Below are positions 2,032-28,850 of a stretch of 64,000 bases of DNA, one piece after another (the first letter of the stretch is position 1; each line of letters begins with the position of its first letter). The position numbers and the translations under genes were made by a program. Source of the DNA: Parcubacteria group bacterium. Lineage in GTDB: Bacteria > Patescibacteriota > Minisyncoccia > JACPHC01. The stretch covers positions 344 to 64,343 of the forward strand of contig JACPHC010000003.1 in NCBI GenBank assembly GCA_016188775.1. The letters are read 5' to 3'. The notes below the pieces were generated by a model. The model worked only from the letters and a program-made list of their open reading frames with translations. It was not told the DNA's origin and made no database searches.

Positions 2032-4932
2032 ATGTTCAATAAACACAAAAACGCCGGTTTCGCGACCTTGCTGACAATAGTAATTATTTTAGGCCTTAGC
2101 CTGATTATCGTCAGCGGTTTTTCCGTTGCCAGTCTGTCTAATATCCGTGAATCCAAACGCGCTATTAACTCTTCTAAAACTCAATACGTCGCCGAGGCTG
2201 GGATCGAAGACAGTCTTTATCGGATTATAGCCGGGAAACAATACACGGCGACTAATAATTTAGCGGTTGGCGAAGGAACCGCCATCACTAACATTACCGA
2301 TGTTTCCGGCAATAAAATTATCACTTCTCTGGGCAACCGAGAAAATATTTTTAGAAAACTGGAAACAAAATTATCCGTTTCCACTCAAAGCGTTCAATTT
2401 TTCTACGGCGCTCAAATCGGCGAAGGGGGCGCCACTCTTAATAATGGCGCCGAAATCAATGGCAATGTCTATTCCAACGGCAATATTGTAATGACTGCCA
2501 ACGCTAAAATTAGCGGCGGCGCTATTGTGGCCGGCGGCATCGCCCCAACGCCCGATCAGCAATGGACCATTGGAAATTCCGATTTTCCTTTTGGACTGAC
2601 CACTGGCACAACCGCCATCACCGTTGATGAGCCGGGCGATATCGGCGACTATAACGCATTAACTTTGGGTTCTGACGGACTAGCCCGGATCAGCTATTAC
2701 GACGCGTCCAATAATGATCTTAAATACGTCCGTTGTACTTCAGCCGACTGTGTTTCAAAAAATATTACTACAATTGATTCTAGCGGCGATGTCGGATTTC
2801 GTTATACTTCCATTGCCATTGCCCTGGATGGATTGGCCCGAATCAGTTATTACAATAATACTAACGGCGACCTAAAATACGTTCAATGCGCCAATGACGA
2901 CTGCACGACAAAAAATATCGCCACTATTGATTCCAGTGGCGATGTCGGCCAATTCAACTCTCTGGCTTTAGGCACTGACGGATTGGCCCGAATCAGCTAT
3001 TACGCCGTCTCGGGCGGCAATCTTAAATTCCTTCACTGTTTGAACGATAACTGTTCATTGCGAAACACTTACACTGTTGACTCAATTGGCGATGTGGGCA
3101 AATACACTTCAATAGTCTTGGATCAAAACAACATCGCGATGATCAGTTATCTTGACGAAACCAATGATGATTTAAAATTTACCCAATGTTTAAATGTTGA
3201 TTGCTCCGCGGTCAATAATTACATCGTTGACTCAACCGGCGATGTCGGCCAATTCAAAACTTCCATCGCTCTTGGGTCTGACGAACTGGCCCGAATCAGT
3301 TATTATGACGACACGGGTAAGGATCTTAAATACGCTCAATGTTTAAACATCAGTTGCACGCTTAAAAATATAACTATTGTGGACTCGGCAGATCAAGTTG
3401 GAAAATACAGCTCGCTTCGACTTAATCCGGCTGACGGATTGGCCCGAATTTCTTATTATGACGCGACCAACGGCGCTGCTAAATTCGCCCGATGCTTAAA
3501 CGATTCTTGCTCCCAAAAAAATATTTCCACTCCGGATACCACCGGCAATGTCGGGCTTTACACTTCTTTGGCGATGGCTCAAGACGGCTTTGGCCAAATC
3601 AGTTATCGCGATGACACGAATCAGGATTTAAAATTTCTCAAATGCGCTGATCCGGATTGTAATCCGGGACAAACCACCGGCGACGCGGCTCAAAGTTTTA
3701 TTCCGTCAGCCACTAATCTTTTGCGTAAAATCAGCCTCAATATCAAAAAAATCGGCAGTCCGGGTGATGCCACCGTCAGGATAATGGCCAATAAATCTCC
3801 ACAAAATGTTCCGGATAAAGATAATACATTAACCACTGGCACGCTTTATTCTTCGATGGTCACTGGCAGTTATGGCTGGGTGGACGCGGCTTTTGTCACT
3901 AATCCGACTTTAAATATCGGACAAACTTATTGGATTGTTATTGACGCGGTTAATGATTCCAATAATTATTGGGTTTGGGCTAAAGATAATACCGACGCTT
4001 ATGTTTCCGGCACTGGTAAATTCGCTTTAAATTGGGATATTTCGCCCAATAACTGGTCAAGCGCGGGCGGCGATCTTGATTTTAAAACTTGGATGGCCGG
4101 AACTGTGACGAAAATAGATGGTGGCGTTGTTTCCGACGCGGCTCAAGCCAATACTTTAATCAACACCAAAATCTGCGGGGACGCTTATTTTCAAGCCATT
4201 GACGCTTTTTCGCTCAATTTCGTCAATAATCCGACCAATCCCGATTGCGCTAATCCTTTAACTCCGGGCATGTCTTTTCCCGGTTCCTCCGACCCTTCTC
4301 CGCTGGCTATGCCTATTTCCGACGGCCAAATTGACGCGTGGAAAACCGACGCCCAAGCCGGCGGCGTTATTGCCGGAGATTACAACGTGACTTCTGATGT
4401 CAGTCTTGGTCCGAAAAAAATCACCGGCAATCTTAATATGACCAGTAACAATAGAACTCTGACCGTCACCGGAACAATTTATATCGCGGGCAATATAGAT
4501 ATTGCCAACAATTCAAGAATCCGCTGCGACGCTTCTTACGGGATAAATTCATGCGTTGTTGTGGCGGACGGTTGGATTCATATTTCCAATAACGGACAAT
4601 TCGCCGGATCGGGTCAGGCCGGCAGTTATATTATGCTGCTGACGACCGCTCCCTGCAAAGGAACCGGTTTTTCCAATCCGCCAACGCCTTGCGCCTCCGC
4701 CCACCATGAAGCCAGCGTTGACCTTCATAACAGCGCCACCGGAATAATTTTTTACGCCAAAAACGGACTGATTAATCTTCATAACACAGTTAATGTCACG
4801 GAATTGTCGTCTTTTAAACTGGCGCTGGATAACAACGCCGTGATAAATTACGAACAAGGACTGCAAAACGCTCAGTTCACTTCCGGCCCAAGCGCGGGCT
4901 ATAAAATCGAATACTGGAAAGAAGTGCCTTAA
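2032..4932 (+). CDS. Large pilus-associated protein: pilin-like N-terminal helix, eight tandem ~44-aa Cys-containing repeats (propeller-like) and a C-terminal beta-helix-like region; putative tip adhesin
   Basis: MFNKHKNAGFATLLTIVIILGL is a pilin-like N-terminus. The repeat unit is GDVGxYTS(I/L)AL..DGLARISYYDxTNxDLKYxxCxNxxC..KNI..IDS, eight copies. The ORF-track start at 1966 (TTG) lies inside a MITE fragment, so the ATG at 2032 is preferred. Confidence 0.6.
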   Translation: MFNKHKNAGFATLLTIVIILGLSLIIVSGFSVASLSNIRESKRAINSSKTQYVAEAGIEDSLYRIIAGKQYTATNNLAVGEGTAITNITDVSGNKIITSLGNRENIFRKLETKLSVSTQSVQFFYGAQIGEGGATLNNGAEINGNVYSNGNIVMTANAKISGGAIVAGGIAPTPDQQWTIGNSDFPFGLTTGTTAITVDEPGDIGDYNALTLGSDGLARISYYDASNNDLKYVRCTSADCVSKNITTIDSSGDVGFRYTSIAIALDGLARISYYNNTNGDLKYVQCANDDCTTKNIATIDSSGDVGQFNSLALGTDGLARISYYAVSGGNLKFLHCLNDNCSLRNTYTVDSIGDVGKYTSIVLDQNNIAMISYLDETNDDLKFTQCLNVDCSAVNNYIVDSTGDVGQFKTSIALGSDELARISYYDDTGKDLKYAQCLNISCTLKNITIVDSADQVGKYSSLRLNPADGLARISYYDATNGAAKFARCLNDSCSQKNISTPDTTGNVGLYTSLAMAQDGFGQISYRDDTNQDLKFLKCADPDCNPGQTTGDAAQSFIPSATNLLRKISLNIKKIGSPGDATVRIMANKSPQNVPDKDNTLTTGTLYSSMVTGSYGWVDAAFVTNPTLNIGQTYWIVIDAVNDSNNYWVWAKDNTDAYVSGTGKFALNWDISPNNWSSAGGDLDFKTWMAGTVTKIDGGVVSDAAQANTLINTKICGDAYFQAIDAFSLNFVNNPTNPDCANPLTPGMSFPGSSDPSPLAMPISDGQIDAWKTDAQAGGVIAGDYNVTSDVSLGPKKITGNLNMTSNNRTLTVTGTIYIAGNIDIANNSRIRCDASYGINSCVVVADGWIHISNNGQFAGSGQAGSYIMLLTTAPCKGTGFSNPPTPCASAHHEASVDLHNSATGIIFYAKNGLINLHNTVNVTELSSFKLALDNNAVINYEQGLQNAQFTSGPSAGYKIEYWKEVP
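2631..3670 (+). repeat. Eight tandem 132-nt coding repeats inside the large pilus-associated gene
   Basis: Recurring GACGGATTGGCCCGAATCAG(C/T)TATTAC at 132-nt spacing (around 2679, 2830, 2983, 3284, 3436). Confidence 0.75.
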
Positions 4933-5670: not shown

Positions 5671-6753
5671 ATGTCATTTTTTTCTTTCAAAGAAACCGCT
5701 ATCGGCCTTGATATTTCCGATTATTCGATTAAAGCCGTTTATTTAAAAAATACGCGCCAAGGTAAAATTATTAAAAATCTTTTTGAACTAGCCATACCGC
5801 CGGGCTTAATTAATCAAGGAGAAATTCAAAATCAGGATAAACTTTTTGAAATTTTTAAAGAATTTTTAAAAAAAATTAAGGCCAGCCGAATTAAAACGCC
5901 CTATATCGTCTCTTCTTTGCCGGAAGAAAAATCATTTATCTCGGTTATTCAGCTCCCCAAAATGGAAGAGAAAGAAATAGGATCGGCTCTTGGTTTTGAA
6001 ATTGAGGCTAATGTTCCTTACGCCTTTCAAGAAGTTTATTTTGACTGGAAAAGCCTGCCTTCGGCCAGCCTCGATCATCTGGATATTCTGGTCGCGGCTT
6101 CGCCTAAAAAAATAGTTGATTCTTATTTTTCTCTTCTCAAGCGCCTAAAACTTATATCGGTCGCTTTTGAAATTGAATCGCAAGCCATTGCCAGAGCTTT
6201 AATCAAAAATGAAATCCAAGAAAAACCGATATTGCTTATTGATTTAGGCGCGACCCGCACCAGTTTCATTATTTTTTCCGGCGGCTCTATTCGTTTTACT
6301 TCTTCCATCCCCGTCTCGTCCAAAGATTTAACTTCAGCTATCGCTGACGTCCTAAAAATTCCGGAAAATGAAGCCGAAATTTTAAAAATCAAACACGGGC
6401 TTGATAAAAAAGGGACGGAAGGAATTAAAATATTTGACGCGATTCTGCCGCGCCTAACCGCTCTCATTGAAAAAATTCAAAATCTCATTATTTTTTACCA
6501 AAGCCACGCCAAACACGAACACGGCCGGATTTTGGAATTCGAAAATATTCTTCTTTCCGGCGGAGGCGCCAATCTGGCCGGCCTTTCTCAATATTTAAAA
6601 GAGGAATTAAAACGAAAAATTGGATTAGGCAACCCTTTCGTTAATCTGGCAAAATCGCCAACAAAATTTTTATCTGATCTGGCGCCTGATAAGGCCGTCG
6701 CCTTCACCACCGCCATTGGCCTGGCTTTAAGAAACATTGAAACGGAAATTTAA
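5671..6753 (+). CDS. pilM: Type IV pilus assembly protein PilM (actin-like ATPase)
   Basis: N-terminus AIGLDISDYSIKAVYL, a typical PilM start, plus an actin-fold sugar-kinase-like pattern. Confidence 0.8.
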   Translation: MSFFSFKETAIGLDISDYSIKAVYLKNTRQGKIIKNLFELAIPPGLINQGEIQNQDKLFEIFKEFLKKIKASRIKTPYIVSSLPEEKSFISVIQLPKMEEKEIGSALGFEIEANVPYAFQEVYFDWKSLPSASLDHLDILVAASPKKIVDSYFSLLKRLKLISVAFEIESQAIARALIKNEIQEKPILLIDLGATRTSFIIFSGGSIRFTSSIPVSSKDLTSAIADVLKIPENEAEILKIKHGLDKKGTEGIKIFDAILPRLTALIEKIQNLIIFYQSHAKHEHGRILEFENILLSGGGANLAGLSQYLKEELKRKIGLGNPFVNLAKSPTKFLSDLAPDKAVAFTTAIGLALRNIETEI

Positions 6754-6921: not shown

Positions 6922-7456
6922 TATGCCAATTAATCTTTTGCCTCCGGACCAAAAAGAGGCGTTAAAATGGACGAGAATTTTTCATATCGTCAACTATTAT
7001 AGTTTCGGACTTGGAGCTCTTTTTATTATTTTGGCCGCTGTTTTTTATCTGATAAATTTTTACGGCAATTTTGAATTAAAACTGCTGGAAAAACTACTGG
7101 AAGCGGAAAAAGGCGGATCGAAATGGGCAAAAATCGTTCAACAAGAAAAAGAGATCGAGAAAGGGCGAACTCTTTTGAGCGCCTATGAAAAAAATCAAAA
7201 AGAAATTAAATCAATTCTTCCCTTCCTCGATAAAATTTCAGCGATTACGCCTCAAGGAGTATTTCTGACTTCGCTTTCTCTGGACGTGGGCGGACAGGCG
7301 AGTATTGCTGGCTACTCGCCCGACCGAAGCCGGGTCAAAGACATAGAAAACGCCCTCAAAAACGACCCGACGTTTCAAAATATCAGTTCTCCGGCCTCAA
7401 ACTTTTTAAAACCCATTGATATCAATTTTAAATTTTCTTTTACGATAAAAAAATAG
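6922..7456 (+). CDS. pilN: Type IV pilus assembly protein PilN
   Basis: MPINLLPP (the INLLP hallmark of PilN) followed by a single transmembrane segment. The track start at 6881 (TTG) falls inside the MITE; ATG 6922 is preferred. Confidence 0.7.
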
Positions 7457-7459
7457 CAT

Positions 7460-7612
7460 AGACCTCTTGCAAAATAATCTTTTCTACTCCAATTCTCAAA
7501 TTTCGGGTGTCAACCCTACGGGTGATCTCCCGTAGGGAGACAAATTATTCAGAGCTTCTCAACGTATTTTGATTAAAATACGCTTCGTCGCTCTTCATAA
7601 TTTTCGCAAAAA
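7460..7612 (+). mobile_element. MITE-like element A, copy 2 (right end internally deleted); contains the CCCTACGGG-TGATCT-CCCGTAGGG hairpin
   Basis: Left inverted repeat AGACCTCTTGCAAAATAAT at 7460. The 9-bp stem hairpin sits at 7514-7537. The right end is truncated after ...TTTTCGCAAAAA. Confidence 0.65.
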
Positions 7613-23096: not shown

Positions 23097-24551
23097 ATGG
23101 CAATGAAAATCCCTCAAGGAGTGGAAAATATAATTAAAATATTAGAAAAAGCCGAATTTGAGGCCTATCTTGTCGGCGGCTGCGTTCGGGATATTTTGAA
23201 CGGCATAGAGCCAAAAGACTGGGATATTGCTACTTCAGCCAAACCCGATCAAGTACAAAAATTATTTCCTGATAACGTTTACGAAAATCAATTTGGCACG
23301 GTTGGCGTAAAAACCGATTCGGAAAATTTAAATTTGCGGCTGATCGAAGTGACGACTTTTCGAGTTGAAGGAAAATACAGCGATAAACGTCATCCGGACG
23401 AAATTAAATTCGCTAAAACGATTGAAGAAGATTTGGCTCGGCGGGATTTTACGATTAACGCCATTGCCGCCTCCTCGAACTTAAAATTAATTGATCCTTT
23501 TTCCGGCCAAGCAGATTTAAAAAATAAAATTATCAAGGCGGTTGGCGACCCGAAAGAAAGATTTAACGAAGACGCGCTCCGAATGATGCGGGCGGTTCGT
23601 TTCGCCGCCGTTCTTAATTTTAAAATAGAAGAAAAAACGCGGGAAGCGATTAAAAAAAATTCCAATTTGCTTCAGATTATCGCCAAAGAAAGAATCCGCG
23701 ATGAACTGATTAAAATTATTGAATCGGCGAGAGCGAAAGAGGGATTAGAACTTTTATCCGATCTGCGTTTGCTGAAATTTGTTTTGCCTGAATTGGAAGA
23801 AGGAATTAATGTCGGCCAAAATAAGCACCATGTTTATACCGTTTGGGAGCATAATTTAAGAGCTTTGGATTACGCGGCGAAACAAAATTACGGGCTTGAG
23901 ACGCGATTCGCTTCTTTGCTGCACGATGTTGGAAAACCGCAATCCAAAAGAGGCGAAGGTCCGGATTCCACTTTTTACGGCCATGAGATGATCGGCGCTA
24001 AAATGGCGACTCGGATTTTGGAGCGGCTTAAATTTTCCAAAAAGCAAATTGAAAAAATATCGCTTTTGATTCGCTATCACCTTTTTTATTATAATGTGGA
24101 CGAAGTGACCGAAGCTTCAGTCAGACGACTTTTAGGAAAAGTCGGACCAGAAAACGTGGAGGATTTGATAAACGTGCGTAAAGCGGATCGAATCGGCTCC
24201 GGCGTGCCCAAAGCCGAACCTTTTAAGCTGCGCCATTTGCGCTATGTCATTGAAAAAGTTTCTCGAGATCCGTTATCCGTCAAAATGCTTTTGGTTAAAG
24301 GCGAAGATGTGATGAAAACATTAAACATCGGGCCCGGGCCAATAATCGGTTTTATTCTTAATATCTTATTGGGCGAGGCCCTTGACGATCCGGCTTTAAA
24401 CAGGCAGGATTATTTGACGCATCGCATTGAAGAATTAGGCGGAAAGTCTGACGCCGAATTAAAGAAAATGGCGAAAGAGGCGGAAAAAGAACGAGAGGAA
24501 GTTCAATTTAAAATAGAAGAGACGAGCAAACAGAGATATTGGGTGACGTAA
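23097..24551 (+). CDS. cca: CCA-adding tRNA nucleotidyltransferase with HD domain
   Basis: LVGGCVRDILNG ... DWDIAT (polymerase beta-type nucleotidyltransferase head) and HD motif LLHDVGKP. Confidence 0.85.
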   Translation: MAMKIPQGVENIIKILEKAEFEAYLVGGCVRDILNGIEPKDWDIATSAKPDQVQKLFPDNVYENQFGTVGVKTDSENLNLRLIEVTTFRVEGKYSDKRHPDEIKFAKTIEEDLARRDFTINAIAASSNLKLIDPFSGQADLKNKIIKAVGDPKERFNEDALRMMRAVRFAAVLNFKIEEKTREAIKKNSNLLQIIAKERIRDELIKIIESARAKEGLELLSDLRLLKFVLPELEEGINVGQNKHHVYTVWEHNLRALDYAAKQNYGLETRFASLLHDVGKPQSKRGEGPDSTFYGHEMIGAKMATRILERLKFSKKQIEKISLLIRYHLFYYNVDEVTEASVRRLLGKVGPENVEDLINVRKADRIGSGVPKAEPFKLRHLRYVIEKVSRDPLSVKMLLVKGEDVMKTLNIGPGPIIGFILNILLGEALDDPALNRQDYLTHRIEELGGKSDAELKKMAKEAEKEREEVQFKIEETSKQRYWVT

Positions 24552-24558
24552 TTTTTTA

Positions 24559-24591
24559 CGGGGTGTAGTATATCGGCAGTACGCACGCTTC
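24559..24591 (+). pseudogene. 5' half of a tRNA-Pro-like gene (acceptor, D arm, start of the anticodon arm)
   Basis: CGGGGTG-TA-GTAT-ATCGGCA-GTAC-G-CACGC-TTCG parallels the intact tRNA-Pro at 24655. Confidence 0.5.
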
Positions 24592-24654
24592 GCTGAAGCG
24601 CGAGCGAGGTGAGCAGTACGCGCGCTTCGGGCTTGCCCCATTAGAAATAAACAT

Positions 24655-24724
24655 CGGGCTGGAGTATGACGGCAGTACGCACGCTTCGGGTGCGTGTAGA
24701 CTGGGTTCGACTCCCAGCAGCCCG
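24655..24724 (+). tRNA. tRNA-Pro (anticodon CGG)
   Basis: CGGGCTG-GA-GTAT ... GTAC, anticodon stem CACGC/GCGTG with loop TTCGGGT, T stem CTGGG/CCCAG with loop TTCGACT, acceptor CAGCCCG-A. Confidence 0.75.
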
Positions 24725-24736
24725 AAAAATTTCTAA

Positions 24737-24781
24737 CGGGGCGAACATGAAGACTGAGTTCAATTCCCAGCACCCCGACCA
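24737..24781 (+). pseudogene. 3' half of a tRNA-Pro-like gene (variable loop, T arm, acceptor, CCA); it pairs with the 5' fragment at 24559
   Basis: ...CTGAG-TTCAATT-CCCAG-CACCCCG-A-CCA. CACCCCG is the exact complement of CGGGGTG at 24559. Confidence 0.5.
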
Positions 24782-24844
24782 TTTAAGACAAAAAAATTTA
24801 ATCTCTAAATCAGAACAATAGAACCTTGAAATTGAAGGAGGAAC

Positions 24845-25495
24845 ATGGACAATAACTGTGTTTTTTGCGACAGAACCAAGATTGGTAATCGCCTTATCGC
24901 TGAAAATAGCAGATGGTATGTGGCCGCTACGCTTGGCCAAATAATTGGTGGATATACTCTTGTAATTCCGAAAGTGCACATCTCGTGCATGGGAGCGCTT
25001 ACATCTCACCGACCTGGCAGCCAGACGGAAGCGATGCTTAAAATCGCGAAAGAAACGTGCCGCGCACTTTCGCTGGAATACCGGCACAGCAATTCGGCAA
25101 CTCCTTGTCCCGTTACAGCGTTTGAACATGGAATTATCGGACAAACAATCAAACACGCTCATCTCCATCTTTTGCCGACAGCGATTGACTTAACACAAAA
25201 GATACGCGCGGACTTTCCCGAATCCGAGTTTGAAGAGCTTCAGTATGCGGCGCGCTTGCAAGAACTTTACAGCAAGCGCCCGGAGCCATATCTTTTCTGG
25301 ACGACCCCTAACGGTAAATCGATGGTGTGTTGGAATCCGCCAGCGCCATCTCAATATCTGCGTATTATTATAGCTGAAATACTTGGTTATCCAGAACGCG
25401 GGAACTGGCGCAATATGGATCCTGAATTGGACAAAAAACTTTGGCAGGAAACAGTTAATCGTCTTAGGCCTTATTTTAAAAGGAGGGAAATTTAA
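24845..25495 (+). CDS. HIT-family (histidine triad) protein
   Basis: KHAHLHLLP histidine-triad motif. Local GC is higher than in neighbouring genes. Confidence 0.65.
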   Translation: MDNNCVFCDRTKIGNRLIAENSRWYVAATLGQIIGGYTLVIPKVHISCMGALTSHRPGSQTEAMLKIAKETCRALSLEYRHSNSATPCPVTAFEHGIIGQTIKHAHLHLLPTAIDLTQKIRADFPESEFEELQYAARLQELYSKRPEPYLFWTTPNGKSMVCWNPPAPSQYLRIIIAEILGYPERGNWRNMDPELDKKLWQETVNRLRPYFKRREI

Positions 25496-25721
25496 TGAAA
25501 ATTCTTGAAAGACCAATTGCTATTAACGGCGCAATGACCGCCTACGAAATCTATAAACGATTAGTAAGCGGTTAGTTCTGCAGAGACGAGAAAATTCTCG
25601 TCTCTTTTCTTTTTCGAAAAACTAAAAAATTTGACAAAATTTAAAATAATAGCTAATATATTTTAAATGGTTTTAGCTCTTTGATTTAAATTATAAATTA
25701 AAAAATAAAGGGGGGGGTAAA

Positions 25722-25910
25722 ATGAAGTTAGTGTATCGATGCGGCCAGGATGTTATGGATCACGAAACTTATATTCAAAGACTCGAGGATAATCTCAAGT
25801 ACGCGCTTTATCTAATAGACAAATATTACGTTCCTGAATACGAATCAAGACAAATTCGAGAAATGGTAAAATGTATTCATAATTCTCGTTATGAAAATCA
25901 TGAAAGATAA
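25722..25910 (+). CDS. Hypothetical small protein
   Basis: Strong RBS AAGGGGGGGGT upstream. Confidence 0.4.
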   Translation: MKLVYRCGQDVMDHETYIQRLEDNLKYALYLIDKYYVPEYESRQIREMVKCIHNSRYENHER

Positions 25911-25935
25911 TAACCAAAAAAGGAGGAAATGAATT

Positions 25936-26394
25936 ATGCTAAGAAGGGGGAGAAATGGATTATATCGGACGTATGAAAAACTAGCTAAAGCTGTACCGCA
26001 GCCATTTGTTATTGATGATATTATAATAGAAGTTAAAGAGTATAATTCGGATTTAGCCGATACCCATCCAAATTTAGCTAATAATATTCAAAGCTGGATT
26101 TCGAGTCAGGTAAGAATCGGAAAAATATTTAAACTGCCACAAAATGGAGGCCGATGCAAAAAATACTCATTCGATCCGGCGGATGCTGCTGCGATAACAA
26201 AAAATAAAACAAATGAAATGGAGGCGAAAAAAGAAATGCCTCCAGAAAAAGAAAATCCACCTCTCGAGAAATCATCGTTACGCGATCTCGTAAGATTTGA
26301 GGTCATTATACCCGCTAACGCCCGGCGTATGACCGTCGACGTGGGCGGAGTTGAATATGACATCGTAAAGCGTCAAGAAAATGACGAATTATAA
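25936..26394 (+). CDS. Hypothetical protein
   Basis: RBS AAAAAGGAGGAAAT, with a terminator downstream. Confidence 0.45.
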   Translation: MLRRGRNGLYRTYEKLAKAVPQPFVIDDIIIEVKEYNSDLADTHPNLANNIQSWISSQVRIGKIFKLPQNGGRCKKYSFDPADAAAITKNKTNEMEAKKEMPPEKENPPLEKSSLRDLVRFEVIIPANARRMTVDVGGVEYDIVKRQENDEL

Positions 26395-26414
26395 ATCTTG
26401 AATGCTTTATATTC

Positions 26415-26449
26415 GCAACAGGTTTAACCGGTTGCGTTTTTTTATACTT
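26415..26449 (+). terminator. Rho-independent terminator
   Basis: GCAACAGGTTTAACCGGTTGC followed by GTTTTTTT. Confidence 0.6.
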
Positions 26450-26483
26450 GTAATATCTTAAAATAAGATTGAAATGAAAAAAA

Positions 26484-28634: not shown

Positions 28635-28850
28635 CTATTTCAATATCATCTCACGCGCACAAGCGTCTTTTTTGGCTTTATACGCCTCATAATATATTAA
28701 TTCAGGATTCTTAGTTTTATGCTCTTTTAATCTGCGCTGTAAATCATTGGTGTATCCAATATAGATTTCACCTTTGGTTTTATTTTTTAAGATGTATACA
28801 TAGTGCATAAATTTATGTGCTGGGTAAAGGTTTGGTTGCAAAATTTTCAT
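28635..28850 (-). CDS. GIY-YIG domain nuclease (UPF0213-like), 71 aa
   Basis: HYVYILKNKTKGEIYIGYTNDLQRRLKEH. Confidence 0.7.
   Translation of the reverse strand: MKILQPNLYPAHKFMHYVYILKNKTKGEIYIGYTNDLQRRLKEHKTKNPELIYYEAYKAKKDACAREMILK

Follow-up and report, generated by a model that had tools for sequence, protein, structure and literature searches.

A tRNA-Pro gene nested within the halves of another tRNA-Pro gene: a candidate replacement cassette in Parcubacteria

Transfer RNA genes are usually seen as stable, vertically inherited landmarks and as passive sites of integration. A 64,000-nucleotide stretch of DNA from a Parcubacteria group bacterium (GenBank assembly GCA_016188775.1, contig JACPHC010000003.1, positions 344 to 64,343; hereafter the window) contains an intact tRNA-Pro(CGG) gene that lies between inverted arms inside the two halves of a second tRNA-Pro gene, just downstream of cca, the gene for the CCA-adding enzyme. 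The arms belong to a mobile family of small insertion elements; one pair of related loci shows the site filled and empty; and the same nesting recurs at tRNA genes of other specificities, with inner and outer anticodons in agreement where the outer one is readable. On balance, a small cassette with no promoter of its own but with a replacement tRNA probably entered the resident tRNA gene, put it out of action, and so became indispensable.

A tRNA gene inside a tRNA gene

The locus comprises the following features, all on the forward strand:

23097..24551, +, cca, encoding the CCA-adding enzyme (ORF, open reading frame; Pfam PF01743, PF12627 and PF01966 on an identical protein)
24559..24592, +, 5' half of the outermost tRNA-Pro(CGG), tRNA positions 1-35, ending T32 T33 C34 G35 (nhmmer, model 1-34, E=4.8e-6)
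24593..24631, +, junction filler (CTGAAG...) and a third 5' half, decayed, of which the part between D-loop and G37 can still be made out (GCAGTACGCGCGCTTCGGG)
24632..24648, +, left flank CTTG and left arm CCCCATTAGAAAT of a palindromic insertion element (matches the family core CCCC[AG]TTAGA)
24655..24725, +, inner intact tRNA-Pro(CGG), without encoded CCA (ARAGORN; Rfam RF00005, 47.9 bits, full length)
24729..24745, +, right arm ATTTCTAACGGGG and right flank CGAA
24746..24781, +, 3' half of the outer tRNA-Pro, with A73 and encoded CCA (nhmmer, model 36-72, E=3.5e-5)

An earlier note, made from the sequence alone, had proposed that the two outer pieces are one split tRNA-Pro gene and that an intact tRNA-Pro(CGG) stands between them. 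Both proposals hold. A profile built from 71 tRNA-Pro genes places the two halves as listed (the 3' match itself spans 24743-24779, and the CCA occupies 24779-24781). The outer acceptor strands, CGGGGTG (24559-24565) and CACCCCG (24771-24777), are exactly complementary, and the inner gene has a pair of its own, CGGGCTG and CAGCCCG. ARAGORN and Rfam agree on the inner gene to within a nucleotide at either end (24654/5-24725/6). The note had named a single intron-containing tRNA as the outcome that would speak against this. ARAGORN, when introns are allowed, does report one at 24559-24725 with a 96-nt "intron", but this call is chimeric, with its 5' half taken from the outer gene and its 3' half from the inner one, so that two acceptor-stem mismatches are left.

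Three copies of the 5' segment (repeat D1; 24559-24592, 24596-24629 and 24655-24688) and two of the 3' segment (repeat D2) are present. The threefold repeat had been seen before, and a repeat finder recovers it, except that the first copy ends in TTCGC rather than TTCGG. The middle copy is the decayed fragment: it is 62% identical to the outer 5' half, gives a weak nhmmer match at 24613-24632, and lies in a region with an inverted repeat of its own (24595-24602 / 24621-24628). The outer and inner 3' halves are 84% identical. Unmentioned until now was a 24-nt inverted repeat (24625-24648 / 24729-24752) that encloses the inner tRNA; the arms proper lie at 24636-24648 and 24729-24741.

The outer gene is decaying. 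Its T arm has one A.C mismatch (24757/24767), and the remainder of its anticodon stem reads CATG, formerly CGTG, followed by a variable loop AAGA. The window holds a somewhat decayed, three-level example of the arrangement. The inner gene folds as a cloverleaf at minimum free energy and is presumed to be functional. (It has G8, at 24662, and G14, at 24668, where U8 and A14 are near-universal; a Staskawiczbacteria relative, L070, shows both changes in its own tRNA-Pro(CGG), at 7452-7525.)

The insert of about 150 nt contains no ORF; no promoter-like site belonging to the inner tRNA was found; and the two window junctions share no core sequence. The tRNA-Pro profile detected no further tRNA-Pro fragment anywhere in the 64-kb window. 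Rfam, searched at the gathering cut-off and at E<=10 over this region and 16 related loci, returned tRNA matches only and no group I intron, and inspection of the junctions revealed no bulge-helix-bulge motif (3-nt bulge, 4-bp helix, 3-nt bulge).

The predicted structure of the transcript raises the question of a role at the RNA level. The leader and trailer around the inner tRNA form a duplex of -29.0 kcal/mol, stronger than the 5th percentile of 290 tRNAs (-23.3), and for the transcript of the nested unit the predicted fold is one cloverleaf enclosed by another (-99.7 kcal/mol, z=-5.4), as it is for that of L011, a relative described below (-85.7 kcal/mol, z=-4.4). An outer tRNA that is spliced or assembled, or a shell that serves as a processing scaffold or tRNA-like RNA, would be in keeping with such folds, with outer acceptor stems that are intact and often carry CCA, with insertion into loops (the anticodon loop or the D-loop), and with arms that vary between copies while keeping their self-complementarity. 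However, the joined halves would lack a 7-nt anticodon loop, being 2-4 nucleotides short, and in the window the 3' strand of the joined anticodon stem is the degenerate CATG. Rfam finds no group I core, for which the insert is in any case too short, and no bulge-helix-bulge is seen. The element occurs in both orientations, and the window's outer gene is visibly decaying. An RNA-level device is thereby the least probable of the explanations considered here.

Nor is the nesting likely to come from faulty assembly, as independent assemblies from many studies have the same layout. The point that could be raised in favour of an artefact is that two contigs from Logan assemblies, L201 and L202, leave the window exactly after a shared 31-mer in the inner tRNA. 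Both are 99.8% identical to the window until position 1697 (window 24710), where a different T arm and acceptor take over (GGGAGTTCGATTCTCCCCACCCCGAC); the next gene codes for a sigma-70 factor. They probably are k-mer chimeras with a second strain that bears an intact "outer-type" tRNA-Pro; otherwise they would represent a real recombinant allele. A third contig, L203, terminates at 24588.

The site in relatives and the recurrence of nesting

The 80 best genomic relatives of the window, retrieved through cca (L001-L080; 57-64% identity), all are Patescibacteria/Parcubacteria. About 65 of them carry a tRNA-Pro(CGG) downstream of cca, mostly uninterrupted, and in 29 of the 54 that could be scored the tRNA begins no more than 40 nt from the cca stop codon. 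In the closest cca relative in the protein collection (L204, 79% amino acid identity), an ordinary tRNA-Pro(CGG) with no interruption begins 4 nt past the stop. The order cca, tRNA-Pro(CGG) is widely conserved in Parcubacteria. In the window, 7 nt separate the cca stop from the outer 5' half, so the outer gene occupies the ancestral position.

A cleaner version of the window's structure is found in L011 and L038, where a 13-bp helix in the anticodon loop of an outer tRNA-Pro(CGG) encloses a complete inner tRNA-Pro(CGG). L011 moreover has a counterpart with an empty site, L046, whose intact tRNA agrees with the outer halves of L011 in 66 of 67 nt; the flanks upstream are 92% identical. (No empty-site allele was found for the window's own species.) When 71 tRNAs are ordered by similarity to the outer halves of L011, its own inner tRNA comes only 48th and is therefore foreign to the gene that surrounds it. 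L046 carries, between cca and a small zinc-ribbon-like ORF, a palindromic insertion of another kind (2014-2148; arms CCCAGTAACTCAACTCCGA / TCGGAGTTGAGTTAACTGGG), which has no counterpart in the otherwise collinear L011.

These comparisons bear on a simpler account, in which tandem or slipped duplication of the resident tRNA-Pro, followed by deletions, produced the locus with no mobile element involved. The three 5' and two 3' copies are indeed direct repeats, and no tRNA is closer to the outer fragment than the inner one in L038 and L001, where it is the nearest relative or identical. However, duplication places copies in tandem and does not nest them; a mobile family is the source of the arms; the inner tRNA of L011 is clearly foreign; and the outer halves of the window are closer to the intact tRNA-Pro(CGG) of another genome, L023 (61 of 65 nt), than to the tRNA that they enclose (56 of 65). 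Local duplication is an improbable source of the nesting.

Nested or remnant-flanked tRNAs were identified in about 15 of the 80 loci, as follows:

Pro: window, L011, L038, L071; 5' remnant only: L001, L025
Ala: L044, L045, L052, L067; 5' remnant only: L010
Arg: L025 (insertion in the D-loop), L038, L071
Lys: L022, L057
Lys, linked to an ORF, 5' remnant only: L032, L055, L064

Metagenome copies of the arm family described below (L081-L200) extend the arm-flanked and nested cases to five isotypes: Pro, Arg, Val, Ala, and Lys. The window's arm family is present in the nested examples of the window itself, L011, L025, L112, L155, and L193; other arms are found in L038, L067, L052, L045, L044, L022, and L071. 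In every case, the isotype that best matches the outer fragment is that of the inner tRNA, and wherever the outer anticodon is readable it equals the inner one: Val GAC (L155), Val TAC (L193), Arg TCG, Lys CTT, and Pro CGG. From the anticodon loops of the outer genes, 2-4 nucleotides are missing (L011, L038, L112, L155, L193, and L067), and these genes cannot decode. Middle fragments resembling the window's third 5' half are present also in L045 and L010.

In L112 (537-826, minus strand), the outer tRNA-Pro(TGG) shell is interrupted three times: the D-loop holds a small CCCCGGTAGT...ACTACGGGG hairpin, the anticodon loop the cassette with its tRNA, and the T-arm region another insert. L038 (241-417, minus strand) contains a tRNA-Arg pseudogene whose anticodon loop holds a 29-nt hairpin without cargo (CCCCCACACCAAAACTTTTGGTGTGGGGG); an intact tRNA-Arg(TCG) lies 9 nt downstream, in tandem rather than nested.

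At the syntenic site, identity of tRNA-Pro(CGG) is nearly uncorrelated with identity of the adjacent cca (Spearman 0.12), and the genomes L037 and L055, 89% identical in cca, are 56% identical in the tRNA. Such decoupling is the pattern to be expected if tRNA replacement were frequent, and is consistent with it.

The inverted-arm family and the route of insertion

The arms of the window are terminal inverted repeats that match a family core (CCCCGTTAGA family). Scanning for CCCC[AG]TTAGA...TCTAA[CT]GGGG, with a gap of 74-104 nt, found the core in at least 120 metagenome contigs; core hairpins without any tRNA are present also in several of the relatives, and viral contigs yielded no matches. 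No Rfam family corresponds to the arms. Among 131 arm pairs, 125 contain no tRNA, and their interiors are highly varied. Identical 4-nt TNNA sequences flank 71 of 130 pairs. When the element and one of the two repeats are deleted, interrupted ORFs are restored, with a single Pfam domain running across the junction (L118, AAA_22; L139, HAD hydrolase; L100, DUF559). These flanks and restored reading frames identify the family as a DNA insertion element of the foldback type or like a miniature inverted-repeat transposable element (MITE), with a 4-bp target duplication.

Two further properties of the family deserve record. Of the TNNA sequences that flank the 71 matching copies, TAAA, TTTA, TGAA, TTGA, and TTCA are common, but the palindrome TTAA is absent. 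Outside the 10-nt core, the arms vary from copy to copy yet are self-complementary within each copy, to about 35 bp, which suggests either selection for hairpin formation or generation by it.

The remaining six arm pairs of the 131 carry a tRNA, and all six lie within a disrupted tRNA gene of the same anticodon. The element's orientation relative to the tRNA varies, with both occurring. An insertion with a complete tRNA has thus disrupted the resident gene. In the model that best accounts for the window, the cassette, a complete tRNA-Pro(CGG) gene between MITE-like inverted arms, entered the tRNA-Pro(CGG) gene that follows cca, within its anticodon arm. This resident gene was destroyed, its two halves persisting as the outer shell, and its function would have passed to the cassette tRNA. 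Transcription of the inner tRNA presumably starts at the cca promoter or at that of the old tRNA gene; cca probably drives the nested unit, because its stop codon lies 7 nt before the outer half. RNase P and RNase Z would then free the inner tRNA, and the enzyme encoded upstream would add the CCA that the gene lacks. With the resident copy dead, the cassette presumably could not be lost. These events may have been repeated: the decayed third 5' fragment in the window suggests more than one round at this site, giving serial replacement, and the middle fragments in L045 and L010 likewise suggest repeated rounds.

Several observations weigh against this model. The window's flanks, CTTG and CGAA, show no target duplication, and all tRNA-carrying copies have flanks of the CNNG...TGAA type in place of TNNA repeats. 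Lacking the usual duplication, the tRNA-bearing copies may not have arrived by ordinary transposition. No transposase with the family's ends was found: the 200 loci scanned contain no arm pair 0.4-4 kb apart. Cargo-less copies are not enriched near tRNA genes, 2.4% lying within 200 nt of one as against 2.5% at random; since these copies ignore tRNA genes, random insertion followed by selection accounts poorly for nesting in six of six cases. Finally, the outer acceptor stems are mostly intact, often with encoded CCA, which could mean that insertion was recent or that the shell has kept some role.

What, then, would bring the cassette to its target? A second, unrelated arm family (CCCCCACACCA...) is found in tRNA anticodon loops only, once without cargo, and has the same type of flank. 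Because cargo-less copies of the first family show no preference for tRNA genes, and because the CNNG...TGAA flanks are common to both families, a dedicated, homology- or structure-guided insertion route is favoured, possibly an intron-like homing through the conserved outer halves. A rule whereby a CTTG..TGAA cassette replaces the loop TG describes the window, L025, L112, L155, and L193 and fails for L011 and L038; on inspection, the junctions likewise did not match bulge-helix-bulge, kink-turn, integron attC, or tyrosine-recombinase core-site models.

In the explicit form of the homing idea, homology-dependent repair, after DNA uptake or a nuclease cut, copies the cassette into cognate tRNA genes that are still intact, with the outer halves acting like exons. 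This would explain directly why the anticodons match and why all six cargo-bearing copies lie in cognate genes when the arm family, taken together, shows no targeting of tRNAs. Junction types are common to different genomes (L011/L038, L155/L193, L067/L052, and L045/L010), and the second arm family has the same flanks and was seen in tRNA loops only. In addition, an ORF with helix-turn-helix (HTH) and LAGLIDADG-like features abuts tRNA-Lys(CTT) in seven of the 80 loci, three of them with a 5' remnant of an older tRNA-Lys. However, no nuclease gene adjoins the window cassette, the homology arms would measure merely some 30-38 nt, and the ORF linked to tRNA-Lys has no significant match to any nuclease family. 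Moreover, the window's junction lies at 37/39 and those of L011 and L038 at 31/36, although all three are Pro(CGG). As a full explanation, homing of this kind is unlikely, if less so than duplication.

The ORF itself encodes a conserved protein of 240-258 amino acids and is found in L032 (1381-2249), L064 (3224-4094), L055 (368-1260), L016, L018, L033, and L079. It has an N-terminal HTH and a LAGLIDADG-like "YWAEG" motif; sequence and profile searches of Pfam, PHROGs, and PDB returned only a weak HTH match. In L032, L055, and L064, 26-30 nt from the 5' end of the older tRNA-Lys remain just upstream of the ORF. From its sequence context, the unit of ORF and tRNA-Lys(CTT) looks like a protein-coding cassette for tRNA replacement or homing.

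A broader proposal, more speculative than the replacement model for the window and held at rather less than even chances, is that Parcubacteria harbour a class of miniature "tRNA replacement cassettes". These would home into the loop of the resident gene with the same anticodon, kill it, become essential, spread horizontally, and pile up in several levels. They would be a main driver of the near-complete decoupling between tRNA sequence and host phylogeny, and the CNNG...TGAA flanks would be the footprint of an insertion mechanism guided by homology or structure.

Neighbouring genes and known systems

Beyond the nested locus lie three genes that the earlier note had described as a GC-rich islet:

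24845..25495, +, HIT-domain gene (Pfam HIT, 25.9 bits), a neighbour outside the nested element
25722-25910, +, ORF of 62 amino acids, without Pfam match, likewise a neighbour outside the element
25936-26394, +, ORF of 152 amino acids, without Pfam match, likewise outside

The gene content stands, if weakly for the HIT assignment (Pfam cut-off 21.5 bits), and the other two ORFs indeed belong to no Pfam family. The compositional claim fails: GC is 0.399 over 24845-26394 and 0.394 over the window as a whole, which places the stretch at the 54th percentile among segments of 1550 nt, and the 3-mer distance reaches only the 63rd percentile. The HIT gene taken singly has a GC of 0.465 (89th percentile), and the remainder, 25496-26394, is AT-rich (0.352). 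None of the 80 relatives has a homologue of the 62- or 152-residue ORF near cca. No recombinase or transposase was found within about 4 kb, among ORFs tested between 20.2 and 30.8 kb. At a distance of 3.9 kb downstream from the nested tRNA is a stand-alone ORF of 71 amino acids with a GIY-YIG nuclease domain (28635-28850, minus strand; Pfam, 44.3 bits).

The HIT protein has 246 homologues, up to 89% identical, and all named ones are from Patescibacteria. Similarity between the HIT region and other contigs begins at 24785-24798. In L205, a HIT gene lies between tRNA-Leu(TAG) and tRNA-Gly(GCC). In L207, a homologue (about 81% nucleotide identity) is enclosed by 103-nt inverted repeats, 97% complementary (4716-4818 / 5750-5852), and adjoins a gene for a 511-residue serine recombinase (3051-4586); this unit is an invertible or mobile cassette. 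The HIT gene may be mobile in its own right, because its neighbours vary between contigs and because of the repeats beside the serine recombinase in L207. It does not belong to the nested structure: its place in the window is outside the split tRNA, with no tRNA fragment beyond.

The earlier note had read the whole as a scar of integration or excision. On this view, a phage or island would have integrated at the tRNA and then disappeared by excision or decay, and the duplicated attachment sites and the HIT islet would be what it left. In favour of this, integration at tRNA genes is classical, L004 has such a layout (an intact tRNA-Pro with a 3' fragment 1 kb downstream), and the HIT homologue in L207 has a serine recombinase beside it. 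However, both old halves flank an insert of only about 150 nt; the 3' half precedes the HIT region, and no tRNA fragment lies beyond the islet; no recombinase is nearby; composition is unremarkable; and the junctions share no core. What survives is a scar of mobile DNA at a tRNA gene. An integrase-type scar is very improbable, more so than duplication.

The nested layout suggests an undescribed way to replace essential tRNA genes. A cassette of 110-150 nt that brings its own copy apparently has overwritten such genes for at least five amino-acid specificities. If general, this would be a minimal form of genetic "addiction" by a mobile element, and would explain why tRNA sequences in these reduced genomes depart from the organismal tree. 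It also is a source of mis-annotation, in the form of false "intron-containing" tRNAs and tRNA pseudogenes, and it provokes a mechanistic puzzle: how a non-coding cassette locates the gene of its own anticodon.

A search of the full-text literature found no description of nested tRNA genes in bacteria, nor of a tRNA-carrying MITE in a cognate tRNA gene. Several known systems share individual features. When islands and prophages integrate at tRNA genes, a 3' part borne by the element restores the tRNA, and a partial repeat marks the far end of a kilobase-scale island with its integrase. The likeness is that a tRNA gene is the target and fragments are left behind.

Intron-containing, split, and permuted tRNAs of archaea, and bacterial group I introns in anticodon loops, resemble the window in that a helix-forming insert interrupts the loop; in Nanoarchaeum, a helix of 12-14 bp connects two tRNA halves. 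However, the window has no bulge-helix-bulge, no group I core, and no anticodon that could be restored, and its insert holds a complete tRNA. Phage T4 SegB is a free-standing homing endonuclease whose gene resides in a tRNA cluster. The likeness here is the selfish replacement of a tRNA-gene region by a linked allele, an analogy that applies to the modules of ORF and tRNA-Lys(CTT) only; the window cassette is accompanied by no nuclease gene.

Like MITEs and foldback repeats, the members of the arm family are small and numerous, end in inverted repeats, have no transposase gene, duplicate 4 bp of the target, and insert into both genes and intergenic DNA. The tRNA-bearing copies differ in their complete tRNA cargo, in their location exclusively within cognate genes, and in missing the usual target duplication.

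The nearest described phenomenon is the tRNA-dependent lysogeny of actinobacteriophages, in which the prophage disrupts a host tRNA gene and supplies a same-isotype tRNA (Guerrero-Bustamante and Hatfull 2024, PMC10865867). The logic is the same: an essential host tRNA gene is disrupted and not rebuilt (PMC10865867). There, the element is a whole prophage with a tyrosine integrase and an attP/attB core of about 10 bp (PMC10865867), whereas an insert of the window's type has no recombinase, measures 110-150 nt, is bounded by inverted arms, and lies wholly inside the old gene.

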